Assembly (NCBI RefSeq): GCF_001735745.1
Contig: NZ_CP017260.1
Span: 240,001-272,000 of the forward strand
DNA from: Formosa sp. Hel1_33_131
GTDB lineage: Bacteria > Bacteroidota > Bacteroidia > Flavobacteriales > Flavobacteriaceae
Length of the DNA: 32,000 bases
Reading direction: 5' to 3'
Positions 7,137-32,000 of this stretch are shown here, one piece after another; the first letter of the stretch is position 1; the number at the start of each line of letters is the position of its first letter. The notes under the pieces were generated by a model, which did not search any database, was not told the origin of the DNA, and saw only the letters and a list, made by a program, of their open reading frames with translations. Position numbers and translations under genes: made by a program.

Positions 7137-7216
7137 GGCTCAGTAGCTTATATTAGCTGTAAAATTATTACTTTTGCAGCCGACTACATAATTATTTTTA
7201 ATTAGTTTTATATTTC

Positions 7217-7927: not shown

Positions 7928-7929
7928 GC

Positions 7930-8691
7930 ATGATAAAACTATCAGGAGTCATCATAACGTACAATGAAGAGGAGCATTTAAGAAAATGCCTGTCCTCTTT
8001 AGTTGACGTTGTGGATGAAATTATTGTCGTAGACTCCTACTCTACTGATAAAACACAAGAAATTTGTAAGGAGTTTAATGTGACTTTTATACAACAAAAG
8101 TTTTTGGGATATTTTGAACAAAAAAACTTTGCGTTAGAACAAGCAAGCTACAATCATGTACTGTCTTTAGATGGTGATGAAGCGCTTTCTGATAAGTTGA
8201 AATCCTCCATCTTAGAAGTTAAAAAAAATTGGAAATACGCAGGCTATTATTGCAATAGAAGAAATAATTATTGTGGGAAATGGATTCGCTTTTCAGATTG
8301 GTATCCAGATAAAAAATTAAGACTTTTCAAAAAGGACAGTGGAGAATGGAAGGGCATCAATCCGCATGATACTTTTAAATTAAAAAGCAATATCAAAAGT
8401 GGCAAATTAAAAGGCGATATTTTACATTGGATTTATAGAGATTACGACGAACATAAACAAAAAGTTGAACAGTTTTCGACCATTGGCGCAAAATCTTATT
8501 TTGATTTAAAAATTTCGGCTTCTCTTTTTAAAGTTTACTTCAGACCTTCATGGGCGTTTTTTAAATCTTATATTTTAAGACTTGGGATTTTGGATGGAAA
8601 ATATGGATGGCGCATCTGCAAACAAGCATTTATCGTTACCTATTTAAAATACAGTAAATTGAGGCAACATTGGAAAAATTCAAAAGCATAA
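7930..8691 (+). CDS. glycosyltransferase family 2 protein, WaaE/KdtX-like
   Basis: ATG at 7930 gives MIKLSGVIITYNEEEHLRKCL...VDEIIVVDSYSTDKTQEI...SLDGDEAL...GILDGKYGW. The longer track ORF from 7900 would overlap the upstream gene; 7930 lies 3 nt after its stop. Confidence 0.85.
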   Translation: MIKLSGVIITYNEEEHLRKCLSSLVDVVDEIIVVDSYSTDKTQEICKEFNVTFIQQKFLGYFEQKNFALEQASYNHVLSLDGDEALSDKLKSSILEVKKNWKYAGYYCNRRNNYCGKWIRFSDWYPDKKLRLFKKDSGEWKGINPHDTFKLKSNIKSGKLKGDILHWIYRDYDEHKQKVEQFSTIGAKSYFDLKISASLFKVYFRPSWAFFKSYILRLGILDGKYGWRICKQAFIVTYLKYSKLRQHWKNSKA

Positions 8692-8735
8692 ATTGAATAA
8701 AAAATTTAATTAACGTTTAAAACTGCACTAAACAT

Positions 8736-9842: not shown

Positions 9843-9845
9843 AAA

Positions 9846-10721
9846 TTAAACTGGCAAGTGTATTAAATCCCCTAACTCTTTATTTAATCTTTCAACGGTG
9901 AGTCTCCTATTTGCTGCCCAAGGGAAAAATGTTAATTCCCCAAAATAAATTTTATTTTCAATAGAGTACAAATCCACACGAACAAAAATAAAATCATTCG
10001 CTAACTTTTCAGAAACCGTCAGTAACTCCTCTAAATTATCTGGTTTTGGAACTTCCTTAGACAAGTAATCTACTTTATTATCATCTGGAGACATTCGATT
10101 CCAATTTAAATCATAATAACAGTTTCTATGTTTCCCGTTGTCAAAAGTTTTCACCCAAATACAAGCAGGTTTTCCATGGATACAGTAAAATTTATAATCC
10201 AAAATATGATCGTTATCTAATTGGTCTAAGTACGTTTCGGCTAAAATTCTTGGCTGTACATCCTTATAAATGCGCTCTCTATATCGATCGTAATAATTTA
10301 GAGACATGAAGGTATTCAATTTTGACTTGGCATCCTTCCAATCCAAACTGCTTTTATCCTTTACAATAACGTTATAACCTGATCCATGTGTACCTTTTAA
10401 TGCAAATTGATTTGGTAAATCGTCTAAATTTATTTCATCGACATGGTTATAAATGGCGATAAAATCATTTAGATAGGACGCGCCTATTTTATCTTCCACA
10501 TAAGATCTGATTTCATATTTGTCAACATAATCTTTATAAGCCTCTGTATATTTGAAAAATTTCAACCATTGTAGTTTTTCAGTGAATTCCGTTGGATTTT
10601 CAATATTTAAGGATCTGTTATTCTTTGACTTATAATATGTTTTCACAAATTGAATATCCGTGCCAAAGTTTTTAAAATATTTTGTGAGGAGTTGATAATA
10701 TTTTCGTTTGAAAAAATTCAT
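9846..10721 (-). CDS. ATP-grasp fold amidoligase family protein (TupA-like)
   Basis: 291 aa with FALKGTHGSGYNVIV, YKFYCIHGKP, and FVRVDLY...IYFGELTFFP motifs. These are typical of the TupA-like ATP-grasp family found in surface-polysaccharide clusters. Confidence 0.65.
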   Translation of the reverse strand: MNFFKRKYYQLLTKYFKNFGTDIQFVKTYYKSKNNRSLNIENPTEFTEKLQWLKFFKYTEAYKDYVDKYEIRSYVEDKIGASYLNDFIAIYNHVDEINLDDLPNQFALKGTHGSGYNVIVKDKSSLDWKDAKSKLNTFMSLNYYDRYRERIYKDVQPRILAETYLDQLDNDHILDYKFYCIHGKPACIWVKTFDNGKHRNCYYDLNWNRMSPDDNKVDYLSKEVPKPDNLEELLTVSEKLANDFIFVRVDLYSIENKIYFGELTFFPWAANRRLTVERLNKELGDLIHLPV

Positions 10722-15492: not shown

Positions 15493-15560
15493 GTGATAAC
15501 TTGAATTCCAAATTTAACTTTTATTTTTTAATTTGTAACAATTGACGGTAAACATCGTCT

Positions 15561-15568
15561 TATATTTG
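15561..15568 (+). promoter_or_regulatory. putative -7 promoter box TATATTTG (ABC operon)
   Basis: Exact TAnnTTTG match, 21 nt upstream of GTG 15590. TTG at 15542-15544 lies 16 nt upstream as a possible -33 element. Confidence 0.45.
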
Positions 15569-15589
15569 TTATTCATTAAAACTAAAAAT

Positions 15590-16486
15590 GTGAATTCTAT
15601 CCTCAAAATATCAAACCTTACAAAAAAATATGGCTTACTCACTGCGGTCAGTGATCTTTCATTTGACATCGAAAAAGGAAGTGTTTACGGAATTTTAGGC
15701 CCGAATGGCAGTGGAAAATCTACCACCTTGGGAATTGTTTTGAATGTTGTCAATAAAACTTCTGGTGATTTTTCTTGGTTTGGAGGTGCACTGACAACGC
15801 ATCAAGCGCTTAAAAAAGTAGGCGCCATTATCGAACGCCCAAATTTTTACCCTTATATGACTGCCTACCAAAACCTTAAATTGGTTTGTAAAATCAAAAG
15901 CGTTTCTTATGATTCCATAGAAAAGACTTTAGAAATTGTAGGGCTTGACGATCGAAAACACAGCAAGTTTAGTACATTTTCTTTGGGAATGAAACAACGG
16001 TTAGCCATTGCTTCGGCGCTTTTAAATGATCCTGAAATATTAATTTTAGACGAACCAACAAACGGATTAGACCCGCAAGGGATTCATCAAATTAGAGAAA
16101 TCATCAAAGATATTGCCCAACAAGGAACAACTATATTATTGGCTTCTCACCTGTTGGATGAAGTTGAAAAAGTGTGTACTCACGTCGTTGTTTTAAGAAA
16201 AGGTGTGAATCTCTATTCGGGGCGTGTGGATGAATTGATTTCAAGCTATGGGTTTTTTGAATTAAAAACGCATCAAAAAGACGACTTATTAAAACTTCTT
16301 GAAATACATCCAAATTTTTCTCACACAAAGGTTGAAAGTGATTTAATTACTGCTTTTCTTGAGACCCCTATGGAAGCTGAAGAATTCAACCGTTTACTGT
16401 TTAAAAATGGCATTGTATTGAGCCATTTAGTCAAACGAAAAGAAAGTCTGGAAGAACAATTTTTACAATTAACTGACAACCAATGA
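15590..16486 (+). CDS. ABC transporter ATP-binding protein (ABC-2 exporter type)
   Basis: Walker A GPNGSGKST, signature FSLGMKQRL, Walker B ILILDEPTNGLD, H-loop ASHLLDE. I set the start at GTG 15590 (VNSILKISNLTKKYG) because a TATATTTG -7 box at 15561-15568 lies inside the longer TTG-initiated track ORF. Confidence 0.85.
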   Translation: MNSILKISNLTKKYGLLTAVSDLSFDIEKGSVYGILGPNGSGKSTTLGIVLNVVNKTSGDFSWFGGALTTHQALKKVGAIIERPNFYPYMTAYQNLKLVCKIKSVSYDSIEKTLEIVGLDDRKHSKFSTFSLGMKQRLAIASALLNDPEILILDEPTNGLDPQGIHQIREIIKDIAQQGTTILLASHLLDEVEKVCTHVVVLRKGVNLYSGRVDELISSYGFFELKTHQKDDLLKLLEIHPNFSHTKVESDLITAFLETPMEAEEFNRLLFKNGIVLSHLVKRKESLEEQFLQLTDNQ

Positions 16487-17307
16487 AACGATTATTAGAC
16501 TTAGAACTTCAAAAATTATTACTCAACAAAACGAGTAAAATATTGATATTTATATCCTTTATTTTACCCCTTTGCGTCATTCTTTTATCGGCAGTGAAAA
16601 TTAACTTTTTTGGTTTTTTTACGCTAGAACTCGGTGAATTAGGCATTTTTAACTTTCCTATTATATGGCACATTACCACCTTTTTTTCCGCCCTGTTTAA
16701 ATTCTTTTTTGCCATTGTGGTGGTTTCAATGATTGGGAATGAATACAGCAATAAAACACTGAAACAAAACCTCATCGATGGCTTGAGTAAAAAAGAATTT
16801 ATTTTGTCTAAGTTTTATGTTATTGTATTTTTCTCTCTCATCTCAACCCTGATTATTTTTATCATATCCTTAATTCTTGGGTTGATCTATTCGAGTTACA
16901 ATGAATTTAGTATCATTATCCAGCAAATGGAGTTTTTAGTTGCCTATTTTGTAAAACTTGTAGGATTCTTTTCTTTCTGTTTATTTTTGGGCGTCTTGGC
17001 AAAACGGTCGGCATTCGCATTGGCATTTTTGTTTGTCGATTTGATTATAGAATGGATTATTTTAGGACTCATCACATGGAAAAGCAGTTATGAAGTTGCT
17101 CAAAAAGTACAAGACTTTTTGCCTTTAACTTCTATGTCTAACCTTATAAAACAACCTTTTCAGCGCATTGCCATGACAAAATTTCCATCAAACACTGATA
17201 TTAGTTATGATTATGCCGTTCATTTTGACAACATATTAATTGTCCTTTTCTGGACTCTTCTTTTTATATTTTTATCTTATAAATTATTAAAAAAGAGAGA
17301 TTTGTAG
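16483..17307 (+). CDS. ABC-2 family transporter permease
   Basis: 274 aa with about six hydrophobic segments. It has an ATGA start/stop overlap with the ATPase gene (16483-16486). Confidence 0.75.
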   Translation: MKRLLDLELQKLLLNKTSKILIFISFILPLCVILLSAVKINFFGFFTLELGELGIFNFPIIWHITTFFSALFKFFFAIVVVSMIGNEYSNKTLKQNLIDGLSKKEFILSKFYVIVFFSLISTLIIFIISLILGLIYSSYNEFSIIIQQMEFLVAYFVKLVGFFSFCLFLGVLAKRSAFALAFLFVDLIIEWIILGLITWKSSYEVAQKVQDFLPLTSMSNLIKQPFQRIAMTKFPSNTDISYDYAVHFDNILIVLFWTLLFIFLSYKLLKKRDL

Positions 17308-17377
17308 TATATTTCAAACCCATTAATTAAGTATTGTTTTTTGTGATAAAACAAGAAACTTAAACTAATTAGTTTTG

Positions 17378-20300
17378 ATGAAATACGTTGCTCTATTTAT
17401 TTTTCTAATTACATCTTTATCAAGCTTCTCTCAAGGAGAAGCTTCTCATTGGTATTTTGGGAATGGAGCAGGCTTAATATTTGACACAAATACGGATACG
17501 GTTTCCCCTACCAGTGCAGCTTCCTCTACAATAAACACAAACGAAGGCTGTTCTTCCATTTCTGATTCTAACGGGAATTTATTATTCTATACCGATGGTC
17601 GAAATGTGTGGGATAAAAACCATCAAATAATGTCAAATGCGAATTATAACAATGGCAATGGATTGCTTGGAGACCCCTCAAGCACCTCCTCTGGTTTGAT
17701 CATTCCACGTCCGGGAAATCCTGATAATTATTATGTATTTACAGTAGATGAACCGCATCATAATAATGCATGGGCCTATCCAAATCAAGGGCCGGCAGAT
17801 GTCAATGGAAATACGATTTCTCAATACGATGACCCTGGAGGAGGAGGAGGCTCTGTACCAAACGGCGATGACGGTTTTAATAACGGCCTTAACTATTCTT
17901 TGGTCGATTTGACAATGAATGGTGGCAACGGGGATGTTGTAAGTACCGAAAAAAATAGACCTCTTTTAACCTATGATCCTTTAGATCCAGAGCAAGCGAG
18001 TTTTAAGTGTTCTGAAAAAATTACAGCTGTTGAGCATAATGATGGGCAATCGTATTGGGTTTTAAGTCATTTTATGGATGTCTTTTATGCCTTTCGTGTG
18101 GATGCAAATGGCGTGAATACAACTCCCGTTACCACTCAAATAAATCCCCTTATTACACTCAATGGATACCGCCGGAATTCGATTGGCTATTTAAAATCCT
18201 CCCCCGATGGTACTAAATTAGCGATCTGTCATCACGAACAAGGAACGACTCAGGGACAAAGTGCAAACAGTACGGGAAGTTTTTGGCTTTACGACTTTGA
18301 TGACGCCACAGGAATCGTTAGCAACCCGATGAATCTCGGAAGTAATTCTGGCTTTTATGGGGCCGCCTTTTCAACAGACTCCAGTAAACTATATACGAGT
18401 GCTGGGAGTTCTGTCTATCAATTTGATTTAGATGCAACGGATATCTCTGGGTCTCAACAAACCGTTCAGCAGGGTGGTAATTCTATTTTTGCGCTTCAAC
18501 TTGCGCCTAATGGAAAGATATACGGATCGGTTTTCTCCAACAGTTCATTCCTAGATGTCATTAATAATCCAGATGAATTGGGTGCATTGTGTAACTATGT
18601 AGCAGCAGGTCAAGCCTTGGCTCCAGGCACACAGGCTCGTTTAGGCTTACCTCCCTTTATCCAATCTTTTTTCTTAGCTAAAATTGAAGCTGATAATTTA
18701 TGTTTTGGCAGTGCCACTCAGTTTTCTATTGATAGCAATGAAAATTTTGATAGTATTCAATGGGACTTTGGAGATTCTAGTGCAATGAACACTATCGATT
18801 CTCCAACGCATGTTTATGCAAATACAGGAATTTTTACAGTCTCAGCGACCCTTACTTTAGGTACTGAAGTGAATACCTTTTCAAAAACAATAGAAATTTT
18901 TGAAGTTCCAACGGCATTTAGCCCAAATGATGTTTTAGAATGTGATGATGATAACGATGGTGTAGCCGCTATAAACCTCAACCAAACTACGGATACCGAA
19001 ATATTAAATGGACAACTCCCCCTTAATTACACCATTAAATATTACGAGTCGCAAGTAAATGCGGACACTGATATGGGTGCACTGGCAATGCCTTATCAAA
19101 ACACAAGTAATCCACAGACTCTTTTTGCTCGAATAGAAAACAACTCAAATCAAGAGTGTTTTGATACTACATCCTTTTTGTTAACGGTATTTGATACGCC
19201 AACAGCAAATGCTGTTGCGAACAACGAAGTCTGTGATGATTTTGTGGACGGAGATGGAAGCAACGGCCAAAAAATAACGAACCTTCAAATTTTTGATATG
19301 GATGTGTTAGGATCTCAAGATCCTTTAAAATTTAGGGTGAGCTATTATCAGTCACAAACAGAGGCCGATACGAAAACAAATCCACACCCCTATTTATACT
19401 ACAATGTCACCCCTATAACAGAAGAAGTATTTGTTCGAATTGAAACCATTTTAAATGAAAATTGTTTTGACACGACTTCCTTCAACCTAGTTATAAACCC
19501 CTTACCTGAAGTTATGGGTCTCAATCTGTCACAATGTGATGAAGACGGAATCTATGATGGACTCACAATTTTTAACCTCACGGAAATAAATACAACGCTT
19601 ATAAATAATGTTCCTGACCGAGTTACAAAATTTTATACGAGCTTAACATCTGCTCAAAACTCAACGAATGAAATCGATGGAACGGCGTTTAGCAATTCTT
19701 CAAACCCACAAAATGTGTATGTGCAACTTATTAACTCTAACACAAATTGCTTTGATATTGCAGAACTAACCTTGGCAGTAAATGTCACCACAGGAACAGA
19801 TACAACATTAGAGTCTTGCGATTCTGATGGTACCGAAGATGGACTTTTCAATTTCACCTTAACGGATGCCGATGCTGCGGTGCTTGCTGGCTTGCCTGTA
19901 ACTTATACGCTCAGCTATTATGAAACCTACCAAGAGGCTCTTTTAGAAACCAATCCCCTCACGGCTAATTATACCAATACCACTCCTTACAATCAAACTC
20001 TGTTTGCACGTATTGAAAATGACAATAATTGCTATGGCATCAATCAAGTTGAATTGATCGTGCATGAACTTCCACAGATTGTTATTGAGGAGGAACGCAT
20101 TTATTGCCTAAATACATTTCCTGCTATAATTACGTTAGAGGGTGGTGTCCTCAATGGATTTCCGAATTCATTTTTTTATGATTGGTCTACAGGTGCTACC
20201 ACGCCTCAGATTCAAGTCAATTCAACAGGAACTTATACGGTCACTGTGAGCGATGCCAATGGCTGCTCGAAGCTAAGAACCATCACAGTGCTGCCTTCTA

Positions 20301-20782
20301 ATACAGCAACTTTTGATTCCATAGAAATTGTAGATGCTGTTGAAGCTAATTCCGTCACTATTTTTGTGTCTGGAGAAGGTGATTACGAATATGCTTTGGA
20401 TACGGAGTTCTTTGGATTTCAAGACTCAAATACATTTATTGGAGTTGGACCTGGGTTTCATACGGTATATGTGAGAGACAAAAACGACTGTGGGACGGTC
20501 AAAAAGAATATATCTGTGATTGGATTTCCTAAATTTCTCACTCCCAATGGAGATGGATATAATGATCGCTGGCATGTGTATGGAATCAATACTCCAAACC
20601 AAGCAAACAGCAAAGTGTATATTTTTGACCGATATGGAAAATTGCTTATTCAATTAAATCCTTTAGGTGATGGATGGGATGGTACTTATAATGGTGCTAT
20701 TATGCCAACTTCAGACTATTGGTTTTATGTCAAACTAGAAGACGGACGCTTTTTTAAAGGACATTTTACACTAAAAATATAA
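17378..20782 (+). CDS. T9SS type B sorting domain-containing surface protein (propeller-like head, PKD domain, 4 Cys/DxDxDG repeats, Ig-like region, type B CTD)
   Basis: Signal peptide MKYVALFIFLITSLSSFSQ. The N-terminal HWYFGNGAGLIFD...LLFYTDG...YYVFTVD region is common in Bacteroidota type B cargo. PKD signature WDFGDSS...THVYANTGIFTV lies at ~18701-18903. Four repeat modules have first-Cys codons at 18941, 19232, 19535 and 19817. The C-terminus FLTPNGDGYNDRW...IFDRYGKLL...WDGTYNG...DYWFYV is the gliding-motility-associated C-terminal domain (TIGR04131-type, T9SS type B) at 20528-20779. Confidence 0.9.
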   Translation: MKYVALFIFLITSLSSFSQGEASHWYFGNGAGLIFDTNTDTVSPTSAASSTINTNEGCSSISDSNGNLLFYTDGRNVWDKNHQIMSNANYNNGNGLLGDPSSTSSGLIIPRPGNPDNYYVFTVDEPHHNNAWAYPNQGPADVNGNTISQYDDPGGGGGSVPNGDDGFNNGLNYSLVDLTMNGGNGDVVSTEKNRPLLTYDPLDPEQASFKCSEKITAVEHNDGQSYWVLSHFMDVFYAFRVDANGVNTTPVTTQINPLITLNGYRRNSIGYLKSSPDGTKLAICHHEQGTTQGQSANSTGSFWLYDFDDATGIVSNPMNLGSNSGFYGAAFSTDSSKLYTSAGSSVYQFDLDATDISGSQQTVQQGGNSIFALQLAPNGKIYGSVFSNSSFLDVINNPDELGALCNYVAAGQALAPGTQARLGLPPFIQSFFLAKIEADNLCFGSATQFSIDSNENFDSIQWDFGDSSAMNTIDSPTHVYANTGIFTVSATLTLGTEVNTFSKTIEIFEVPTAFSPNDVLECDDDNDGVAAINLNQTTDTEILNGQLPLNYTIKYYESQVNADTDMGALAMPYQNTSNPQTLFARIENNSNQECFDTTSFLLTVFDTPTANAVANNEVCDDFVDGDGSNGQKITNLQIFDMDVLGSQDPLKFRVSYYQSQTEADTKTNPHPYLYYNVTPITEEVFVRIETILNENCFDTTSFNLVINPLPEVMGLNLSQCDEDGIYDGLTIFNLTEINTTLINNVPDRVTKFYTSLTSAQNSTNEIDGTAFSNSSNPQNVYVQLINSNTNCFDIAELTLAVNVTTGTDTTLESCDSDGTEDGLFNFTLTDADAAVLAGLPVTYTLSYYETYQEALLETNPLTANYTNTTPYNQTLFARIENDNNCYGINQVELIVHELPQIVIEEERIYCLNTFPAIITLEGGVLNGFPNSFFYDWSTGATTPQIQVNSTGTYTVTVSDANGCSKLRTITVLPSNTATFDSIEIVDAVEANSVTIFVSGEGDYEYALDTEFFGFQDSNTFIGVGPGFHTVYVRDKNDCGTVKKNISVIGFPKFLTPNGDGYNDRWHVYGINTPNQANSKVYIFDRYGKLLIQLNPLGDGWDGTYNGAIMPTSDYWFYVKLEDGRFFKGHFTLKI

Positions 20783-20857
20783 ATTGTTTTTTGATACTTA
20801 AAACGATCTCAATTACTCTCTTACTGTCTTTCTTAAAAATCTCAATTATTAAACAAT

Positions 20858-21058
20858 GGAATCAATACACACAACGAAGTCAATAGCGAGGTGTATCTTT
20901 TAGACCGGTATATAAAACTGCTTATCAAATTAAACCCTTTAGGTACTGGTTGGGAAGGTACTTATAATGGCAAACTCACTCCTACTTCGGACTATTGGGT
21001 TTATATTATACTTCAAAATAATAAAATATTTCGAGGACATTTCACATTAAAACGCTAA
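20858..21058 (+). pseudogene. orphan 3' remnant of a T9SS type B CTD gene (last ~66 codons plus stop, no start)
   Basis: Translation of 20858-21055 is GINTHNEVNSEVYLLDRYIKLLIKLNPLGTGWEGTYNGKLTPTSDYWVYIILQNNKIFRGHFTLKR followed by stop. It aligns residue-for-residue with the end of the upstream gene (GINTPNQANSKVYIFDRYGKLLIQLNPLGDGWDGTYNGAIMPTSDYWFYVKLEDGRFFKGHFTLKI). An in-frame TAA at 20834-20836 closes the frame upstream and there is no N-terminal part. Confidence 0.8.
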
Positions 21059-21140
21059 TATTTTGTAAGTAAGTTGTTTTTTAAAAAAAAAAGATGTAAT
21101 TTAAATATATATTATTTTAAGGAAGTTAAACTACCCCCAT

Positions 21141-24100
21141 ATGTTTAAATTATTTACAATATTCTTATTTTTCTCATGCGCCATGGTTTGTGCCCAAACT
21201 ATAGCGATTGACTCTAGTGTTCCGGTAGAGGAACTTATAGAAACCCACCTTTTTGATGGTTGTATTGAAGTTTCAAATGTAAGCAGCTCTGTCAATGGGA
21301 GTGTCATTGGCTTAACGAGCTTTGGAACTTTTTCAAAATCAACTTCAAATTTTCCTTTTGATAATGGAATTGTTTTGTCTACTGGAAATACAAATTCTGC
21401 AGGAAATACGGTTATTACAGCAAACTTAAATGAGGGGGATACAAACTGGGGGACGGATTCTGATTTAGAGGATGAACTCGGCATTACCAACACATTTAAT
21501 GCGACTTCCATTGAATTTGATTTTATTTCAGCTCTTGACAAAGTACGTTTTGAGTATATTTTAGCTTCCGAAGAATATCTGCAATCAGCGTATATCTGTA
21601 ACAATCAAGATGTTTTTGCGCTCCTTATAAGAGAAGCGAGCAGTGCAGGACCTTATACAAACATTGCTAACGTGGGTCCTCAAAACGATCCTATTAGTCC
21701 TGGTTCTATACACCCCGAAATATTTGGGTTTTGTAGTGCTAAAAATTAACCCTTTTTTGACAACTACTCAGTAGGAGATACTAATTTTGATGGCCGTACA
21801 ACTCCTATTTCATCAATCGCTAACATCACACCCAATATCCTGTACCATGCAAAGTTAATTATTGCGGATGGCGTTGATCAAAACTTTGACTCGGCTGTAT
21901 TTATAAAAACAAGTGTTGTGATGCCCGAATTAGACTTAGGAAACGATATAAGTAACTGTGCAAGTTCAGTAGATTTGAATGCGGATATAGGTATTACTCC
22001 CTCTACATATGACTGGTATTTTAACAATGTATTGGTTTTAGCAGATGGTGGTACCACCTTCACAGCAACCCAAACAGGAAGTTATACGGTAAAAGTTACG
22101 ATTCTCTTAAACCAAACGGACTGTATTCATGAAGACACCATCAATGTGACATTAAGTTCCGTACAAACTATAAATCCTGTGTCTGATTATGCGCTTTGTG
22201 ACCCCAATGGCGATGGGTTTGAAAATTTTGATCTATCCACTAAAGATTCAGATGTTTTAGCGGCAGCACCCCCCGCTTCCTATGCCATTTCATACCATTT
22301 GACTCTTGCAAATGCAGAAGCAAATATGAGTCCAATTACAACAAGCATCCAAAACAGCAGCAATCCACAAGTTGTTTATGTACGACTCGAAGATACTACG
22401 GGATGTTTGGCGTATGCCCCTATTAATTTAGTGGTCAATCCCATTCCACCACTTCCAACTCTTATGCCGTTTATCGTATGTGACAGTGATGCAGTAAGAG
22501 ATCAAACGACTGCTTTAGGTTTAACGTCTTTTGACCCCACCATTACCAACGGGGATGCTAATCTTGGCGTAAGCTACCATGCATCACTAGTAGATGCTTC
22601 ATCAGGAAATAACCCACTCGCTTCTAATTTTAGTGCTTCATCGTTACAATTGTTTGCAAGAATTTTTAATATAAACACAGGCTGCTCTAATGTGACTCCT
22701 ATTGATGTAGAAGTGTATAATACTCCCGAACTCTATACCGAGCCAATATTTTTAGATGCCTGTGACCCTGATCATGATGGATTTGCAAGCTTCAATTTAG
22801 AAACTGCTCTACCCCTAGTAATAGCAAACTTAACAGGCTTAACTGCTAGTTTTTATACTTCGATGACAAATGCACAAACGAAAACAGATCCAATACCCGA
22901 TCCAACAAATTATACAAATACAACTACCACAGAAGAGGTTGTATATGTGCGCATCGAAGATGATGTGTCAGGGTGTTTTGGTGTGCGATCCTTTGAAATT
23001 CATACCAATTTATTGTTATCAGAAACAGATTTAAGACCCATTACTTTTTGTGATGAAGATGGCGATGGCATGCATACGTTTGATTTAGACCCTGTAAGTG
23101 ATCTAATTAAAAATATGTTGCTAGGACGGACTCACCATCACCTATTACGAAACCCAAGACGACCAAAATAATAACATCCCCATCACAACACCCACATATA
23201 CTTTTACGGGGCCTTCTGTTACCTTATTTATAGATATTGAAAGTAGCAGTTGTCTGGAACAAACTGAGATTGTTTTTGACTTGATAGACGTGGTGCAATT
23301 CGGCAATATTCCAGACCAAAGAATTTGTGATACGGATGATGATGGTTTTACGGTTTTAAACCTCAATAACTTTGATGCTGCTGTAACAGGAAATCAATCG
23401 GGCTTTCAAGTGCTTTATTTTGAATCTCTTACAAATGCTGAAAATAATATTGGAGCACTCCCAAACAACTATATAAATATTACGAATCCTCAAACTTTAT
23501 ACGTGAGTGTTACAGAAAGTGCTACTGCTTGTGCAGATACCAGTTCTTTTGAAATAACAGTGGTTCCTGCAGCTGTCATCAATCCGCCTTCTCCTATTGT
23601 GATTTGTGATGATGATGGGGATGGCTTTTTTATTATTAATTTAGAGGGGTTAATACCTTCTTTAACTTCTACGCCGAATACCGTTGATTTTTCTTTTTTT
23701 ACAAGTTTAAATAATGCAAATCTAGAAATCGATCCTATAACCGCGACTACCGCATTTGATGCCCAAACTCAAACGCTATACATTCGCGCAGAAGAAAATT
23801 TAACAACCTTAAGATGTCCCGTAATTGTTCCTCTCAACGTCATTGTAAATACGCTACCCATTATTCCTACAATTGAAAATTACGATGTTTGTGTCGACAG
23901 TTCTACCAACCCTACTTTCTTAATGAACACAAAGGATAATGAAATTCTAAACGGACAAAATGGCAAAGAAGTATTCTATTACGAAGATGCTGGTTTCACA
24001 CAATTAATTGATAAAAACCAACCCTATATTGGCAACAACTTTCCACAAACAATTTTTGTGAAAGTTGATAACATCACAGACTCTAATTGTTTTTCCACCG

Positions 24101-25950
24101 CTTCTTTTTCAATAAACATCATACCCTTCCCTGTTTATAATGATACTATTAATGTGGATGTTATTGGGTGTGACACTAATCAAATAGATGGGAAAATAGA
24201 CATTGATTTCAATACGATCATCAATACGTTGACACAAGGCATTACCCCTGCTCCAATGATTTCGTTTTTTACGACCTTAAGCAACGCCGAAAACAACACT
24301 GCTGCACTTCCCTTAAATTATGAAAATACCAGCAACCCACAAACCCTATTTATTAGAATTGAAAACAGCAGTAACGGATGCTATTTAACAGATAGTTTTG
24401 GGATTAATGTATTGTCAACTCCTAACGTTAGACAGGTTAATAACCTCACTAAATGCGATACGGATTATGATGGACTCGGTATTTTTAATATAGAAGATTT
24501 TGAAATTGAAATTTTTGATGTTCGACAAAATTTTCTCATTGCAACTTATTATGACAGTTTACAGAATCTTGAAAATGGATTTCCTGAAATCCCAGATGTA
24601 ACCGCATTCCAAACTACTTCCAACCCTCAAATAATTTATATAAAAGTATTAAATACAGCGACACAATGCTTTACTTCAGCTCCCTTAACACTGACTTCAA
24701 TTTTACCCCCTGCTATCAATCCGATATCTGAGTTTGTGATTTGTGATACGGACACCAATACGTTTGAATTATCAGAAATAAATACGGTTTTAACATCAGT
24801 AACTCAAAATATTTCAATCCATTATTTTGATTCCTTAATGAATGCAGAAAACAATCAAAATCAAATTACAATTTTAAACTATCAATCAAGTAACACTCCT
24901 CTTTTTGTTCGAATTCAAAATACCTTAACAAATTGTTTTCATATTCACAATTTCAACTTCATTGTCAATCCACTTCCGATCGCCAATCAACCGCCAAATT
25001 TAGAAGACTGTGATGATGATTTTGACGGAGAATTAGAGTTTGACATATCTCCACAAACCCTTTTAATTTTAGGAACTCAAAGCCCTTCTAATTTTACCGT
25101 CTCTTATTATGAAAACATGGCTGATGCTGAAGTAGGCAACAACCCGTTAAACCTAACGTTTACAGTTGTTAATACAAAATCTATTGTCGCTAAAATTGTA
25201 AATAACACCACACAATGTGAAAACTATACGTCATTTACTATAATCGTGAACCCAATACCAATAGTTGATATTCCTAAGCAAGTAATTTGTTTGGATAACT
25301 TACCGCTTGTGGTGAGTGCTGACACATTTAACAATGGGGATACTTACTTATGGTCTACGGGTCAAACTACTAGTGAAATTATTATTAATACGATTGGAGC
25401 CTATTCCGTAACTGTGACCACCGCAAAAGGCTGTGTAAACAGCTCAAATTTTGAAGTGATTATTTCTGAAGCAGCCACGATAGAATTTACGGAAGTATTA
25501 AATTTCACAGACCCTAACTCTATTACGGTTACTATAGAAGATGGTATTGGGGATTACCGATATCAATTAGATAATGGACCTCTGCAAACTTCAAACTTTT
25601 TCAACAATGTAACTTTAGGGTATCATACCATTACTGTAGTGGATTTAAATGGCTGTCGCGAAACTACCAAAGAAGTACTTGTGATTAATGCACAAAAGTT
25701 TTTTACTCCTAACAATGACACTTATTTTGACACTTGGAATATTGTTGGAATCGAAACACTCCCAGGCTCTGTTATTTATATATTTGATCGTTATGGAAAA
25801 CTTCTTATTAATTTAAATCATGATTCAGGAGGTTGGAACGGTACCTATAGGGGTAATGAAATGCCTGCTACTGATTACTGGTTTTTGGCGAAAATAAAAA
25901 CACCAACCGAAGAATTTGAATACAAAGGCCATTTTACTCTAAAACGATGA
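21141..25950 (+). pseudogene. disrupted giant T9SS type B cargo gene (choice-of-anchor L head, Ig-like region, 11 Cys/DxDxDG repeats, type B CTD); ~1601 codons if repaired
   Basis: Three track ORFs (21141-21749, 21918-23171, 23281-25950) are pieces of one gene. (1) TAA at 21747-21749 is in frame. The text continues across it as ...GFCSAKN*PFFDNYSVGDTNFDGRTTP...YHAKLIIADGVDQNFDSAVFIKT, an uninterrupted choice-of-anchor L domain. (2) A direct GGAC GGAC duplication at 23124-23131 shifts the frame by +1. Deleting one copy restores ...IKNMLLGLTITYYETQDDQNN, which matches sibling repeats (e.g. IANLTGLTASFYTSMTNAQ). The signal peptide is MFKLFTIFLFFSCAMVCAQ. The CTD at 25693-25947 reads QKFFTPNNDTYFDTWNI...IFDRYGKLL...DYWFLAK. 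Confidence 0.85.
24421..25950 (+). repeat. 1.5-kb dispersed direct repeat: modules B'-C'-A' plus tail, collinear with 28330-29859
   Basis: First-Cys codons at 24454 and 28366 are offset by 3912 nt and the stops by 3909 nt (a one-codon indel, TVTIEDGIGDY vs TVMVKGVGDY). Protein text is collinear throughout at roughly 80-85% identity by eye, with long identical nucleotide runs in the CTD. Confidence 0.85.
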
Positions 25951-25995
25951 CTTGAAAATACTCAAAAATTGACATATTAGTAAATCCCCAAATTT

Positions 25996-27180
25996 ATGAA
26001 AATCAATATTAACTTATTTATTATAGCAATTCTGCTATTTAACCTATTGCCCGCTCAAAACATTTCTTTGTTCAACCAATTAAATGGACATTTAGATTAC
26101 ACAGCGATTGGTAACACCCTTAATAAGTCCGAAAATAACGGTTCTTCGAACTGTATAATTAACACGAATTCTTCAGCAACCTTAAACTTATCTCCTACAC
26201 AAACCGTTGAAGCCGCTTACCTCTATTGGGCAGGCTCGGGGTCTGGCGATTTTAATGTGACTCTAAACACCACCGATATCACACCCTCACGAACCTTCGC
26301 TTATAACATAGGTACTAGACGGCACTTTTTTGCAGCATTTGCAGATGTGACCACTTTAATTCAAACGGAAGGAAACGGTTTATATACCCTTAGTGATTTA
26401 GAACAAAACGTATCGACATATTGCTCTCCTAGCACAAATTTCGCTGGTTGGGCCATTACCATCATTTATTCAGACCCCGCACTTCCCTTCAATCAAGTAA
26501 ACGTCTATGATGGCTTAGAAACTGTCCCTCGTAGTATCACAATTCAATTGGACAATCTTAACGTCATAGATACCACAGGGGCAAAAGTAGGTTTTATAGC
26601 ATGGGAAGGCGATGCTGGCTTGGCTGTGAATGAAGTATTACAAATGAACGGAGTAACCTTTAGTAACCGACCTCTTAATCCCGCAAACAATGCCTTCAAT
26701 GGCACCAATAGTTTCACGAACGATTCCAATTTATACAATATGGATATAGATGTTTATTCTATAGAAAACGCTATCAATGCTGGTGATACCTCTGCAGTCA
26801 TACAATTAACTTCTGGGCAAGATTTAGTAATGGTGAATAATATCATCACCGTATTAAATAGTCAATTACCAGATGCGAGTGTCACTATTGACTCTGTTGA
26901 CCAACGCTGTAACCCTCGTGAATTAACCATTGAATATACTGTAAGAAACTTAAATTCTATGCGATTACTGCCTGCAAATACACCCATCGCTTTTTATGTT
27001 GACACTGTTTTAGTCGCCCAAGCACAAACGTCAAACGATATTCCTGGTGGCGGAACCGAATCTAATACGCTCACTTTTACAGTAGATCCTTTGTTTTTGG
27101 ACCCTATTAATCTTACAATTGTGGTAGATGATAATGGTTCGGGAACTGGAATTATCTCAGAAATTAGTGAAACAAATAAC
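25996..27180 (+). repeat. 1.2-kb dispersed direct repeat: head plus CARDB-like region, collinear with 29905-31101
   Basis: The two gene 5' regions align end to end with a 4-codon length difference. Long near-identical runs occur, e.g. TTTGCAGATGT[G/C]ACCACTTTAATTCAAAC[G/C]GAAGGAAACGGTTTATATACCCTTAGT. Confidence 0.85.
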
Positions 27181-29859
27181 TCCGCAGTCATATCTATTGT
27201 TGCCAATCCACTTCCAATCGCCAATCAACCGCCAGATTTAGAGGATTGCGACGATAATTTTGATGGAGAGTTAAAGGTTGATATGTCCACACAAACGGCA
27301 CTTATTATAGGAAGTCAAAATCCTTCTAATTTTACGGTTTCCTATTATGAAAATAGGACTGATGCTGAATCGGGAAACAACCCCTTAGAATTAACGCCTA
27401 TAGTTGTTTATACAAAATCCGTTGTCGCTAAAATTGTAAATAATACAACGCGGTGTGCAAACTATACGTCCTTTAACCTTATCGTTAACCCTTTACCAAT
27501 AGTTGCGCAGACTCATACTATAACGCAATGCGATACCGATTATGATGGTCTTACTATTTTTAATATTAAAGATTTTGAAATTAATATTTTTGATGTTCAA
27601 CAAAATTTTCTCGTTGCAACTTATTTTGACAGTTTACAGGATCTTGAAAATGGAGTTGCTGAAATACAAAATGTAACTGCATTCCAAACAATTTCAAACC
27701 CTCAAATAATCTATATCAAAGTATTAAATACGACGAGCCAATGCTATACGTCAGCGCCTCTCACACTGACTTCAATTTTACCGCCTGCGATCAATCCGAT
27801 ATCCGAATTTGAGATTTGTGATTCCGATACCAATTCGTTTGATTTGTCAGAAATAAATAGTCTTCTAACCACAGAAACGCAAGACATTACTCTTCATTAT
27901 TTTGATTCTTTAACAAATGCTGAAAACAAAATAGACCCCATTACAGTTTTAAACTATCAATCTAATACGACTCCACTCTTTGTACGAATTCAAGATACTG
28001 TAACAAATTGTTTTCATATTCACAGTTTTAATTTCATTGCCAATCCTCTTCCAATCGCCAATCAACCGCCAGATTTAGAGGATTGCGACGATAATTTTGA
28101 TGGAGAGTTAAAGGTTGATATGTCCACACAAACGGCACTTATTATAGGAAGTCAAAATCCTTCTAATTTTACGGTTTCCTATTATGAAAATAGGACTGAT
28201 GCTGAATCGGGAAACAACCCCTTAGAATTAACGCCTATAGTTGTTTATACAAAATCCGTTGTCGCTAAAATTGTAAATAATACAACGCGGTGTGCAAACT
28301 ATACGTCCTTTAACCTTATCGTTAACCCTTTACCAATAGTTGCGCAGACTCATACTATAACGCAATGCGATACCGATTATGATGGTCTTACTATTTTTAA
28401 TATTAAAGATTTTGAAATTAATATTTTTGATGTTCAACAAAATTTTCTCGTTGCAACTTATTTTGACAGTTTACAGGATCTTGAAAATGGAGTTGCTGAA
28501 ATACAAAATGTAACTGCATTCCAAACAATTTCAAACCCTCAAATAATCTATATCAAAGTATTAAATACGACGAGCCAATGCTATACGTCAGCGCCTCTCA
28601 CGCTGACTTCAATTTTACCGCCTGCGATCAATCCGATATCCGAATTTGAGATTTGTGATTCCGATACCAATTCGTTTGATTTGTCAGAAATAAATAGTCT
28701 TCTAACCACAGAAACGCAAGACATTACTCTTCATTATTTTGATTCTTTAACAAATGCTGAAAACAAAATAGACCCCATTACAGTTTTAAACTATCAATCT
28801 AATACGACTCCACTCTTTGTACGAATTCAAGATACTGTAACAAATTGTTTTCATATTCACAGTTTTAATTTCATTGCCAATCCTCTTCCAATCGCCAATC
28901 AACCGCCAGATTTAGAAGATTGTGATGATAATTTTGATGGAGAATTAAAATTTGATATATCTCCACAAACAGCTCTTATTTTAGGAAGTCAAAATCCTTC
29001 TAATTTTACGGTTTCCTATTTTGAAAACATGGGAGATGCTGAATCGGGAAACAACCCCTTAGAATTAACGCCTATAGTTGTTTATACAAAATCCGTTGTC
29101 GCTAAAATTGTAAATAATACAACGCGGTGCGCAAACTACACGTCTTTTAACCTTATCGTTAACCCTTTACCCATAGTTGACATTCCTAAACAGCTTATTT
29201 GCTTAGATAACTTACCTCATTATGTAAGTGCTGAAACATTTAACAATGGGGATACTTACTTGTGGTCTACGGGTCAAACTACCAATAAAATTAGTATTGA
29301 TACGACTGGAACATATTCCGTAACCGTAACCACCCCAAAAGGTTGTGTGACCAGCAGCAGTTTTGAAGCGAATGTCTCGGGTGCAGCTATGATTGAATTT
29401 ACAGAAGTATTAAATTTTACCGATCCAAACTCCATCACTGTTATGGTAAAAGGTGTCGGGGATTATCAATACAAATTAGATGATAACCCCCTTCAAACTT
29501 CAAATTTTTTCAACTATGTAACTTTGGGGTATCATACCATTACTGTGGTGGATTTAAATGGCTGTAGCGAAGTGACCAAAGAAGTATTAGTCATAAATGC
29601 TCAAAAGTTTTTCACCCCCAATAATGACACCTATTTTGACACTTGGAATATTATTGGAATCGATACACTCCCAGGGTCTGTTATTTATATCTTTGATCGT
29701 TATGGAAAACTTCTTGGAACATTAGCATACAATTCAGGGGGATGGGATGGCACCTATAGAGGCTACGAAATGCCTGCTAATGATTACTGGTTTTTGGCAA
29801 AAATCAAAACGCCGACCGAACAATTTGAATACAAAGGCCATTTTGCTCTTAGACGCTAA
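25996..29859 (+). CDS. T9SS type B sorting domain-containing surface protein (unknown ~270-aa head, CARDB-like domain, 7 Cys/DxDxDG repeats in A-B-C-A-B-C-A order, Ig-like region, type B CTD)
   Basis: Signal peptide MKININLFIIAILLFNLLPAQ. The head is shared with 29905-31695. The CARDB-like segment at ~26866-27201 ends in EISETNN. The repeats span 27202-29179 and include an 837-bp tandem duplication. The CTD at 29602-29856 reads QKFFTPNNDTYFDTWNI...IFDRYGKLL...WDGTYRG...DYWFLAK. Confidence 0.9.
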   Translation: MKININLFIIAILLFNLLPAQNISLFNQLNGHLDYTAIGNTLNKSENNGSSNCIINTNSSATLNLSPTQTVEAAYLYWAGSGSGDFNVTLNTTDITPSRTFAYNIGTRRHFFAAFADVTTLIQTEGNGLYTLSDLEQNVSTYCSPSTNFAGWAITIIYSDPALPFNQVNVYDGLETVPRSITIQLDNLNVIDTTGAKVGFIAWEGDAGLAVNEVLQMNGVTFSNRPLNPANNAFNGTNSFTNDSNLYNMDIDVYSIENAINAGDTSAVIQLTSGQDLVMVNNIITVLNSQLPDASVTIDSVDQRCNPRELTIEYTVRNLNSMRLLPANTPIAFYVDTVLVAQAQTSNDIPGGGTESNTLTFTVDPLFLDPINLTIVVDDNGSGTGIISEISETNNSAVISIVANPLPIANQPPDLEDCDDNFDGELKVDMSTQTALIIGSQNPSNFTVSYYENRTDAESGNNPLELTPIVVYTKSVVAKIVNNTTRCANYTSFNLIVNPLPIVAQTHTITQCDTDYDGLTIFNIKDFEINIFDVQQNFLVATYFDSLQDLENGVAEIQNVTAFQTISNPQIIYIKVLNTTSQCYTSAPLTLTSILPPAINPISEFEICDSDTNSFDLSEINSLLTTETQDITLHYFDSLTNAENKIDPITVLNYQSNTTPLFVRIQDTVTNCFHIHSFNFIANPLPIANQPPDLEDCDDNFDGELKVDMSTQTALIIGSQNPSNFTVSYYENRTDAESGNNPLELTPIVVYTKSVVAKIVNNTTRCANYTSFNLIVNPLPIVAQTHTITQCDTDYDGLTIFNIKDFEINIFDVQQNFLVATYFDSLQDLENGVAEIQNVTAFQTISNPQIIYIKVLNTTSQCYTSAPLTLTSILPPAINPISEFEICDSDTNSFDLSEINSLLTTETQDITLHYFDSLTNAENKIDPITVLNYQSNTTPLFVRIQDTVTNCFHIHSFNFIANPLPIANQPPDLEDCDDNFDGELKFDISPQTALILGSQNPSNFTVSYFENMGDAESGNNPLELTPIVVYTKSVVAKIVNNTTRCANYTSFNLIVNPLPIVDIPKQLICLDNLPHYVSAETFNNGDTYLWSTGQTTNKISIDTTGTYSVTVTTPKGCVTSSSFEANVSGAAMIEFTEVLNFTDPNSITVMVKGVGDYQYKLDDNPLQTSNFFNYVTLGYHTITVVDLNGCSEVTKEVLVINAQKFFTPNNDTYFDTWNIIGIDTLPGSVIYIFDRYGKLLGTLAYNSGGWDGTYRGYEMPANDYWFLAKIKTPTEQFEYKGHFALRR
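27202..28875 (+). repeat. in-frame tandem duplication, 2 x 837 bp (279 codons = repeat modules A-B-C)
   Basis: 27202-28038 and 28039-28875 align at offset 837. Reading both copies base by base I found only two differences, 27210 A vs 28047 T and 27765 A vs 28602 G. Both are synonymous, and the translated text is identical in the ORF track. Confidence 0.95.
28876..29179 (+). repeat. partial third copy (module A only), mosaic
   Basis: It is identical to copies 1 and 2 for the first ~40 nt. It then diverges at ~28917-29035, where the encoded FDISPQT and ENM-DAE residues match the neighbour's module A' at 24961-25250, though the nucleotide sequence is intermediate. It is again near-identical to copies 1 and 2 from ~29036 to 29179. 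Homology to the unit ends at 29179, where the tail (DIPKQ...) begins. Confidence 0.8.
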
Positions 29860-29880
29860 CTTTAAAGTAATCAAAATTAA

Positions 29881-29888
29881 TATATTTG
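29881..29888 (+). promoter_or_regulatory. putative -7 promoter box TATATTTG (last adhesin gene)
   Basis: Exact TAnnTTTG match, 16 nt upstream of ATG 29905. No comparable box is visible in the 45-nt gap before 25996. Confidence 0.45.
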
Positions 29889-29904
29889 TAGAACAATCAA
29901 TTTT

Positions 29905-31695
29905 ATGAAACATAAACTAAATATCCCTTTTTTTAGTATAAGTGTAATGCTAATTAACCTCTTAGCAGCTCAAGACATTTCGTTGTTCAATCAACTAAAT
30001 GGACGCTTGGATTATACAGCAATCGGGAATACCCTTAATACTTCCGAAAACAACAGTGCTGTGGACTGTGTCATTAATACAGCTTCTTCGGCAAACTTAA
30101 ATTTATCTACCACACAAACCATCGAAGCTGCTTATCTGTACTGGGCGGGATCAGGATCGGGCGATTTTAATGTGACTCTTAACACCACAGAAATCACCCC
30201 CTCACGAACCTTCGCTTATAGCTTGGACTCGTCACGAGAATTTTTTGCAGCCTTTGCAGATGTCACCACTTTAATTCAAACCGAAGGAAACGGTTTATAT
30301 ACCCTTAGTAATTTAGAACAAATAAACATTTCATCTGACTATTGCTCTACAGGGACAAATTTTGCGGGCTGGGCCATTACTATCATTTACTCAGACCCTA
30401 ACCTTCCACTCAATCAATTAAACGTTTATGATGGCTTAGAAAGTGTCCCAAGTAATATCACCATTCAATTGGACAATCTTAATGTCATGGATACTAATGG
30501 TGCTAGAATCGGTTTTATAGCTTGGGAAGGCGATGCTGGTTTGGCAGTCAATGAAGTCTTACAAATGAATGGCATCACACTTAGTAACCCACCTCTTAAT
30601 CCCGCGAATAACGCCTTTAATGGCACCAATAGCTTTACGAACGACTCCAATTTATACAATATGGATATCGACGTTTATCCCATAGAAAACACCATTAATG
30701 TGGGGGATTCATCTGCAATCATACAATTATCTTCTGGACAAGATTTAGTAATGGTCAATAATATCATTACCGTATTAAACAGTCAATTACCAGATGCGAG
30801 TGTCGTTATAGACACTATTGAACAAAGTTGCAATTCTCGTGAATTAACTGTTGAATATTCTGTAGAAAATCTGAATTCCACACACTTTCTGCCCGCAAAT
30901 ACGCCCATCTCATTTTATGCCAACGCTGTCCTCGTTGCTCAAGCACAAACCCTAAACGACATCCCTATTAATGAAACGGAGTCAAATACAATTAGTGTTA
31001 CGGTTGATCCATCACTTTTAGATCCTGTTAACCTTACAATTGTAGTGGATGATGACGGTACTGGGGCTGGAATTATCACTGAAATTAGTGAAACAAACAA
31101 TACGGCTAACACCTCTATTGAATTTTTAGAATCTCCTGATCCGACTCCTTTAACTCCTTTAATAGGTTGTAATTTCGGAAACAATGAAGCCGTTTTTAAT
31201 TTACGAAATGCTTTAAATGAAATAGATTCTTCATTCGATTTAGAAACCGCTATCTTTTATCAATCCTTAGAAGATTTGATTGATGACCTAGGTGCGTTGA
31301 TAGATCCCTCACAATACATCAATTCGAACGGAGTTGACACCATCTATTTCAGAGTAGATGCAAACCCCTGTTATGAAATTTTTTCAGTGAATTTAGAGGT
31401 CAACGAATGTGACCCTAACATCCCTCAGGGTTTTTCACCCAACGGAGATGGCTTTAATGACTGGTTTAACATAGATGGGCTCTACGATGTGTTTTTACAA
31501 CACGAACTCTTAATATTCAATCGTTTAGGAGCTATTATTTTTAAAGGGAATAACGATCTTAAATGGGATGGAAAAGCCAATTACGGCCCGCTCAAAGGCG
31601 ACAACCTCTTACCTGTTGGAACCTATTTTTATGTATTGTATTTGAATGTTCAAAATGCAAAACCCAGATCTGGTTGGGTTTATATGAATTATTAA
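29905..31695 (+). CDS. T9SS type B sorting domain-containing surface protein (unknown ~270-aa head, CARDB-like domain, 1 repeat, type B CTD)
   Basis: Signal peptide MKHKLNIPFFSISVMLINLLAAQ. The head and CARDB-like region (29905-31101) are about 80% identical by eye to 25996-27180. One divergent repeat module lies at ~31132-31407. The canonical CTD at 31423-31692 reads GFSPNGDGFNDWFNI...IFNRLGAIIF...WDGKAN...GTYFYVL. A TATATTTG box lies 16 nt upstream. Confidence 0.9.
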   Translation: MKHKLNIPFFSISVMLINLLAAQDISLFNQLNGRLDYTAIGNTLNTSENNSAVDCVINTASSANLNLSTTQTIEAAYLYWAGSGSGDFNVTLNTTEITPSRTFAYSLDSSREFFAAFADVTTLIQTEGNGLYTLSNLEQINISSDYCSTGTNFAGWAITIIYSDPNLPLNQLNVYDGLESVPSNITIQLDNLNVMDTNGARIGFIAWEGDAGLAVNEVLQMNGITLSNPPLNPANNAFNGTNSFTNDSNLYNMDIDVYPIENTINVGDSSAIIQLSSGQDLVMVNNIITVLNSQLPDASVVIDTIEQSCNSRELTVEYSVENLNSTHFLPANTPISFYANAVLVAQAQTLNDIPINETESNTISVTVDPSLLDPVNLTIVVDDDGTGAGIITEISETNNTANTSIEFLESPDPTPLTPLIGCNFGNNEAVFNLRNALNEIDSSFDLETAIFYQSLEDLIDDLGALIDPSQYINSNGVDTIYFRVDANPCYEIFSVNLEVNECDPNIPQGFSPNGDGFNDWFNIDGLYDVFLQHELLIFNRLGAIIFKGNNDLKWDGKANYGPLKGDNLLPVGTYFYVLYLNVQNAKPRSGWVYMNY

Positions 31696-31762: not shown

Positions 31763-32000
31763 ATGCAATTTAAGCTTACTTCTGATTTCAAACCCACTGG
31801 TGACCAACCGACTGCTATAAAACAATTAGTAGCTGGAATTGAGTCCGATGAAAAATACCAAACACTTTTGGGAGTTACTGGGTCTGGAAAAACATTCACG
31901 GTCGCCAATATCATTCAAGAAGTACAGCGACCTACACTTGTGTTGGCGCATAACAAAACCCTTGCCGCACAACTGTATTCAGAATTCAAACAGTTTTTCC
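31763..32000 (+). CDS. uvrB: excinuclease ABC subunit B, 5' end only (runs off the right edge)
   Basis: ATG at 31763 gives [79 protein letters not shown]. This is the canonical UvrB N-terminus with Walker A GVTGSGKT. The antisense track ORF 31732-31914 is spurious. Confidence 0.9.

Follow-up and report, generated by a model that had tools for sequence, protein, structure and literature searches.

We have analysed a 32,000-nt stretch of DNA from Formosa sp. Hel1_33_131 (contig NZ_CP017260.1, positions 240,001 to 272,000), here called the window and numbered 1-32,000. Positions 17375-31695 of its plus strand are occupied by an array that, on reading the open reading frames (ORFs), contains four large ORFs and one fragment. 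These are termed g1 to g4 and the remnant; all lie on the plus strand and their coordinates are collected in Table 1. By its gene order and family labels the array is a conserved Flavobacteriaceae cluster of genes for type IX secretion system (T9SS) cargo, a further example of a catalogued family. The element that recurs within it is a module that, on the labels of its homologues, belongs to the Pfam family PF26689, called FIDD, and is thus already catalogued. We consider that the chain of FIDD modules in these T9SS type B surface proteins is probably an acidic stalk, likely to be stabilised by calcium ions and disulfide bonds, that holds interchangeable heads off the cell.

The repeat module and its family

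For counting the modules, a single one of them served as the seed of an iterated profile search. This gave a total of 23 copies, with four in g1, 11 in g2, seven in g3 and one in g4. The E values for individual copies in g1-g3 lie between 5e-17 and 1e-34, far beyond chance, and that for the divergent copy in g4 is 7e-8. The modules are 87-100 amino acids (aa) in length and recur with a period of 89-101 aa. Each of the 23 contains exactly two cysteine residues, 64-77 residues apart; in g4 there is a third cysteine where the module joins the sorting domain. A loop of the form C-D-x-[DN]-x-D-G was sought by eye in every copy, and was found to be canonical in 13, inserted or altered in four and degenerate in six; the loop of g4 is degenerate, with the sequence CNFGNNE. 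At the level of sequence, then, the D-x-[DN]-x-D-G motif of a calcium-type loop is present. The proteins of the window are acidic overall, with a pI of ~4.05-4.09. A preliminary description of this DNA had given the same numbers of modules for the four genes, and its coordinates and motifs agree with our reading of the sequence, as does its central observation that a single acidic module bracketed by cysteines joins different heads to a shared tail.

The same description had put the module forward as a candidate for an undescribed family. This does not hold, because close homologues are labelled PF26689. The protein P0001 is a fragment of 118 aa that comprises module sequence only, and its precomputed label is PF26689. 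The contig from which it comes, L001, carries a fragmented copy of the syntenic cluster ending at uvrB; on this contig every module-bearing gene is labelled 'PF26689:FIDD' and the g2-type heads are labelled 'PF26766:Choice_anch_L'. The PF26689 label is also found on P0152, which is 98% identical to g3, on P0173, which is 99.7% identical to g2, on all 120 listed homologues of g3 (nearly all of which also have PF13585) and on most of the 596-aa orthologues of g4. The label is therefore carried both by near-identical homologues and by a fragment that is module alone, and this identifies the module with the curated family. Note that the evidence for membership is indirect, being the precomputed labels of homologues.

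Scans with whole proteins and with single modules against releases of Pfam-A and NCBIfam that do not include PF26689 gave no match to the module down to E = 10. This is an artefact of the date of the library and not evidence of novelty. The precomputed labels come from a newer release, since they refer to PF13585.13 and the local library holds PF13585.12.

The preliminary description had also asked whether the module would match a curated domain of known function. The curated domain exists, as PF26689; for a known function we found neither a paper nor a solved structure. A literature search on 'FIDD' and PF26689 returned no relevant study of the family, and a search of PDB sequences using module profiles of 19 and 50 sequences gave nothing better than E 0.6. 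In the sources examined the FIDD family appears to be functionally and structurally uncharacterised, and homologues take their names there from the sorting domain or the head, and in no case from the module.

Sorting domains and export

The TIGR04131 model (T9SS type B; cut-off 35 bits) scores 112.5 bits for g1, 106.7 for g2, 103.9 for g3, 41.7 for g4 and 64.4 for the remnant. PF13585 (CHU_C; cut-off 27) also matches g1-g4, with scores of 37-73 bits (72.8 for g4). All five loci, which lie on the same strand, thus end in a type B sorting signature that exceeds the TIGR04131 cut-off, and these matches to curated hidden Markov models identify the products of the array as T9SS type B cargo; both points had been made in the preliminary description. 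The N-termini of all four proteins, as read from the translations, consist of a short basic start, a hydrophobic core and an A/S-Q site, which is the arrangement of a Sec signal peptide. The A/S-Q ends fit the Q-rule for signal peptidase I substrates in Bacteroidetes (PMC5837995).

Type B cargo has been linked to PorP-like proteins for anchorage at the cell surface (PMC9143113), and for orphan type B cargo a shuttle encoded elsewhere in the genome can serve (PMC12618676). No PorP/SprF-like gene adjoins the array, either in the window or in the syntenic loci examined (L001 and L005), which makes g1-g4 'orphan' type B cargo as PMC12618676 uses the term; cargo that lacks a neighbouring shuttle gene is an established category.

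SprB and other type B cargo of Flavobacterium johnsoniae share the type B sorting domain with g1-g4, and presumably the route of export and anchoring (PMC12618676, PMC9143113). The array might accordingly be read as coding for SprB-like mobile gliding adhesins that are moved along the surface by the gliding machinery, instead of for static proteins. The products are long and repetitive, and some sources call their homologues 'gliding motility-associated-like protein'. That name, however, comes from the sorting domain alone, and most type B cargo are not motility adhesins (PMC12618676). Moreover, the F. johnsoniae proteins have cognate PorP/SprF shuttles whereas no sprF/porP-like gene lies beside the array, and SprB repeats were not detected in a Pfam scan of the window. 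We therefore regard a gliding role as improbable, and less likely than the possibility, considered below, that the modules themselves bind ligands.

Heads and tail domains

The PKD domain that had been proposed in the head of g1 is supported by a match to PF18911 at 37 bits, and the choice-of-anchor L domain proposed in the head of g2 by a match to NF038133 at 91.8 bits (cut-off 27); homologues of the g2 head are labelled PF26766. For the CARDB-like domain proposed in g3 and g4 the evidence is divided. PF07705 labels are found on some homologues and on g4 orthologues, but g3 and g4 themselves have no Pfam match for it at E <= 0.1.

Apart from PKD the g1 head matches no assigned family, and the propeller-like part suggested for it in the preliminary description is at most putative. 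A search of PDB sequences with this head returned the PKD match only, and the corresponding search with the g4 head returned only insignificant matches to lectins. The head shared by g3 and g4 has no match in Pfam or NCBIfam. It is modelled as an all-beta structure with a pLDDT of 87, for which the fold matches are weak (E ~1e-4, TM <= 0.32) and include accessory or carbohydrate-binding modules of glycoside hydrolases, PNGase F, Cry toxins and double-jelly-roll capsid proteins. The predicted fold is compatible with glycan binding, which matches of this kind do not demonstrate.

The tail of g1, g2 and g3 includes two conserved immunoglobulin (Ig)-like domains. The first has the motif C-L-D-N-L-P ... 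Y-L-W-S-T-G-E-T-T ... G-C, and the hits of these domains to Pfam (Ig_2, PKD_6 and Ig_7) are all sub-threshold. An origin of FIDD by divergence from the Ig-like tail domain next to it was considered and dropped, the hhalign probability being 3.5%.

Distribution and order of the modules

The abundance of the module was assessed by an exhaustive search of 1.84 billion cluster representatives (50% identity) with a profile built from those 19 window modules that are distinct; this was used in place of a word-indexed homologue search, which with the module profile gave P0001 as its one match. At a threshold of E <= 1e-3 the profile finds 5,805 representatives, of which 1,589 reach E <= 1e-30; a single protein can contain as many as 30 matched stretches. 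Among the matches listed, the named carriers are all Flavobacteriaceae but one, and include species of Psychroserpens, Winogradskyella, Kordia, Pukyongia, Aequorivita, Aureivirga, Lutibacter and Flavobacterium. The exception is a metagenome-assembled genome (MAG) labelled Glaciecola sp. The genome closest to the window is the MAG of an uncultured Formosa sp., in which g4 is 90% identical.

The architectures of the window recur across genera. These are a head followed by four FIDD modules, tail and sorting domain; choice-of-anchor L followed by 11 modules, tail and sorting domain; and the g4 head followed by the CARDB-like domain and a single module. A gene with choice-of-anchor L, two modules, tail and sorting domain is often also present in the cluster. 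The counts of four and 11 are found again in Winogradskyella, Gaetbulibacter, Pontimicrobium and others (at loci such as L011, L016, L065 and L005). With few exceptions, the closest match to a module of g2 in the orthologues from Winogradskyella, Gaetbulibacter and others is the module of the same number, and the modules within g2 are ~28% identical to each other. Orthology position by position, combined with such an identity between paralogues, indicates that the arrays are old, ordered and of fixed length, and that they have not been homogenised by concerted evolution. The orthologues of g4 occur in two lengths. Those of 596 aa have one FIDD module, while those of 506 aa have none and bear the sorting domain label only; the difference is exactly one module.

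The FIDD chain as a probable stalk

The same module is found behind at least three unrelated heads, the counts of four and 11 recur across genera with modules that are orthologous by position, and the number of modules varies without change of head or tail, being one, four or seven in g3 alleles and zero or one in g4 orthologues. All of this argues for a role as a stalk. On this reading the Sec signal peptide would direct export to the periplasm, where the protein would fold; the type B sorting domain would then be recognised, the protein transferred across the outer membrane and retained at the surface, probably by a partner of the PorP/SprF type whose gene lies in another part of the genome. 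The FIDD chain, lying between a variable head and a shared tail that comprises the two Ig-like domains and the sorting domain, would act as an extender. Each module, a compact domain of ~90 aa, would be stabilised by one disulfide bond and by the binding of calcium at its N-terminal acidic loop, perhaps making the chain rigid, and the number of modules would set the distance of the head from the cell. The heads, probably binding ligands or glycans, would be responsible for recognition and thus possibly for adhesion. Diversity would be generated by recombination, through the coupling of head and stalk in g3 and the expansion of its three-module unit.

Conservation was examined in a sample of 81 loci around relatives of g4, which provided 1,679 module hits, 1,482 of them distinct and near full length. 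In these 1,482 modules both cysteine residues are ~100% conserved, and within the acidic loop the conservation is 0.87 for D5, 0.53 for D7, 0.79 for D9 and 0.81 for G10. Other conserved positions are [DN]15 (0.86), D40 (0.77), A41 (0.85), N46 (0.83), N54 (0.71), Q59 (0.60), R64 (0.75), N67 (0.63) and P86 (0.77). Covariation within the same modules gives sensible hairpins, and connects the conserved N-x-x-N-P-Q loop with the acidic one (pairs 9-56, 8-58 and 13-53). Mean-field covariation is uninformative on the cysteine pair, since invariant columns give artefacts.

The structure of one module was predicted by AlphaFold2 from the alignment of 19 sequences, with a pLDDT of 91 and a pTM of 0.77. 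Six strands make up the model together with two main helices. Its best structural neighbour is the base of the GhpA grappling hook (PDB 9fly), with E 0.019, probability 0.97 and TM 0.45 over 97 columns at 14% identity. The other weak neighbours in fold are cadherin EC1, Ig and PKD domains, i.e. domains of extracellular rods or adhesion proteins; the module has no significant similarity to the Ig-like, PKD or cadherin fold in either structure or profile.

We note several observations that weigh against the stalk as drawn above. About six of the 23 acidic loops in the window are degenerate, and D7 is only 53% conserved across the family. Weak covariation between positions 2 and 81 and between 8 and 85 does not obviously place Cys4 beside Cys72. 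The array lacks an adjoining shuttle gene, and g2 carries the lesions described below. Lastly, the conserved polar residues D40, N46, N54, R64 and N67 could equally form a ligand site, in which case the modules would be binding units and not spacers.

This last point leads to the main rival explanation, whereby the FIDD modules form a multivalent, calcium-dependent, lectin-like array for the polysaccharides of algae or particles and the heads are accessory. The conserved polar residues, to which Q59 may be added, are of a type found at surfaces, the orthology of modules one by one across genera could reflect ligands specific to each position, and the hosts are marine Flavobacteriaceae. Yet paralogous modules are only ~28% identical, and the positions that are invariant or nearly so are mostly of core type (cysteine, aromatic residues, glycine and proline). 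The number of modules changes freely in the relatives of g3 and g4, and no carbohydrate-binding family matches the modules in the library, PDB or fold searches. We consider that binding by the modules themselves is unlikely, and that the chain is better read as a stalk.

Recent changes in the array

Recent events in the array concern g2, g3 and the remnant. When g2 is reconstructed across its two lesions, an in-frame nonsense codon and a 4-nt tandem duplication that shifts the frame (Table 1), it differs from the intact 1601-aa protein P0173 by four substitutions in addition to the stop codon and the frameshift. P0173 represents an intact allele with 38 metagenome member sequences. As only four residues differ from the intact allele, inactivation of g2 would be very recent or the lesions would be errors of sequencing; g2 is thus either a very recent pseudogene or the product of such an error. 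In the closest genome, the Formosa sp. MAG (L002), the g2 orthologue at 5140-9951 is also split by a stop codon, at another position than in the window. By an exact-sequence look-up g1 and g3 are not on record.

The head of g3 is 78-83% identical to g4 at the nucleotide level, while its stalk and tail are 80-84% identical to positions 24433-25950 of g2, which encode modules 9-11 plus the tail. The comparison marks g3 as a recent chimera, in which a g4-type head has been joined to a g2-type stalk and tail. The modules of g3 are encoded by ~2.4 tandem copies of an 837-bp unit, which were found by repeat search and direct comparison; the unit exceeds the period limit of 500 in Tandem Repeats Finder. 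Relatives of g3 among the metagenome alleles have lengths of 729/731, 1008/1010 and 1287/1289 aa, corresponding to one, four and seven modules, i.e. to steps of whole units. The variant copy of the repeat is the first in P0152 and the last in g3 of the window. This pattern points to unequal crossing-over as the source of the variation in length, although short-read assemblies can collapse repeats of this kind.

The remnant corresponds to 64 residues at the C-terminal end of a type B sorting domain (TIGR04131 profile positions 22-85) and has no gene body. It shares 73% identity with the sorting domain of a gene at the same position in L005 (2717-5074) that has choice-of-anchor L and two FIDD modules, and 77% nucleotide identity with the sorting domain of g1. 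It is probably left over from a deleted gene of the choice-of-anchor L, two-module type.

Taken together, the two lesions in g2, the remnant between g1 and g2, and the split g2 of the closest genome might be taken to mean that the array is decaying and largely non-functional, a collection of pseudogenes and debris of recombination. Against this, g1, g3 and g4 are intact, g2 is just four residues from an intact allele, and the cluster and its module counts are kept across genera. Decay of the array thus has little to recommend it, and is a less likely explanation than binding by the modules. The stalk remains the reading that we prefer.

Relation to known systems

The closest known counterparts are the PF26689 type B proteins of Psychroserpens, Winogradskyella, Kordia, Aureivirga, Lutibacter and Flavobacterium. 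These have the same module, tail and sorting domain together with heads of the same kinds (choice-of-anchor L and, putatively, CARDB-type), their gene order and module counts are syntenic with the window, and they are annotated as 'T9SS type B sorting domain-containing protein'. There is no substantive difference between them and the proteins of the window, to which the window adds the g3 chimera with its 837-bp expansion and a broken g2.

Calcium-rigidified extenders such as the EC domains of cadherins and the Ig-like repeats of RTX adhesins are chains of domains of ~90-100 aa that have acidic, calcium-type motifs near their boundaries and lie between an anchor and a ligand-binding end. FIDD chains resemble these in having extracellular domains of ~90-100 aa, an acidic motif near the domain boundary and a placement between anchor and head, and by analogy might bind calcium in the same manner. 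By contrast there is no relationship in sequence and the likeness in fold is weak (TM 0.3-0.46, E > 0.01). Two helices and a pair of invariant cysteine residues also set FIDD apart, and export is by the T9SS and not the type 1 secretion system. Similarly, GhpA of Aureispira is the best neighbour of the FIDD module in fold, but with a TM of only 0.45, 14% identity and no match in sequence to the module profiles the likeness cannot be taken as a sign of homology.

Flavobacteriaceae of the sea play a major part in degrading algal biomass, and most of their large T9SS surface proteins have not been characterised. A more ambitious reading than the stalk can be framed in this setting. FIDD would be a distinct fold that forms a rod locked by calcium and disulfide bonds, its copy number would be adjusted through unequal recombination and would so determine how far the interchangeable, lectin-like heads extend, and the cluster would be a cassette system by which bloom-associated marine bacteria diversify their surface adhesins. 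We hold this tentatively, as something that is possible and not as the probable outcome. For work on the family, FIDD offers a confident model without a close solved neighbour, an invariant cysteine pair and an acidic loop that is mostly conserved, together with counts of four and 11 and an order of modules kept across genera, variation by whole three-module units, and recombination between heads and stalks. In practice this gives structural and calcium-binding studies a defined target; it does not amount to a new kind of system.

Features of the window

Table 1. Coordinates of the array, its domains and lesions, and the flanking genes in the window.
Feature	Position	Strand	Description
Upstream flank	15542..17307	+	ABC transporter ATPase (ABC family matches) and probable membrane subunit; context only
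Signal peptide regions	17375-17440, 21141-21200, 25996-26060, 29905-29975	+	each ends A/S then Gln
g1	17375/17378..20782	+	intact ORF, 1135 aa
g1 layout			signal peptide, unassigned head, PKD (18716-18898), 4 FIDD modules, two Ig-like tail domains, sorting domain (20519-20776)
g1 FIDD modules 1-4	18932-19216, 19223-19522, 19526-19801, 19808-20089	+	profile matches, E 8.6e-23 to 5.6e-28
Two conserved Ig-like tail domains	g1 20081-20518, g2 25276-25683, g3 29188-29592	+	between last FIDD module and sorting domain
Remnant	20837..21058	+	73-codon open stretch 20837-21055, stop codon 21056-21058
g2	21141..25950	+	disrupted; choice-of-anchor L head (21237-21710 and beyond), 11 FIDD modules, Ig-like tail, sorting domain (25684-25947)
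g2 nonsense codon	21747-21749	+	in-frame TAA, GAA>TAA, Glu in intact allele
g2 FIDD modules 1-11	22188..25275	+	profile matches, E 5e-17 to 2e-32
g2 frameshift	23124-23131	+	4-nt tandem duplication GGAC-GGAC (GGACGGAC) inside FIDD module 4
g3	25996..29859	+	intact, 1287 aa; g4-type head (26056-26892), CARDB-like domain, 7 FIDD modules, tail, sorting domain (29593-29856)
g3 repeat	27200..29190	+	~2.4 tandem copies of 837-bp (279-aa, three-module) unit; first two ~100% identical
g3 FIDD modules 1-7	27238..29187	+	order A-B-C-A-B-C-A'; A resembles g2 module 11, B module 9, C module 10
g4	29905..31695	+	intact, 596 aa; double beta-sandwich head (29968-30810), CARDB-like domain, one divergent FIDD module (31159-31428), sorting domain (31417-31686)
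Downstream flank	31763..32000	+	uvrB start; reads MQFKL...GVTGSGKTF...

A scan of the window for sigma-70 promoters and terminators performed no better than on shuffled sequence. Upstream of the array, the 274-aa hydrophobic ORF of the ABC transporter pair has no family match in the library scans, and the ATPase is closest to lantibiotic-protection and GldA-type ATPases, with no established connection to the array. Further upstream lie glycosyltransferases, tsaC and a gene for a CCA-adding enzyme; two of the glycosyltransferase genes are within 7900-9842, and for these too no connection to the array is established. Both L001 and L005 have the same flanks as the window, with the ABC transporter on one side and uvrB on the other, and in L001 the gene 3′ of the array is labelled UvrB by Pfam.

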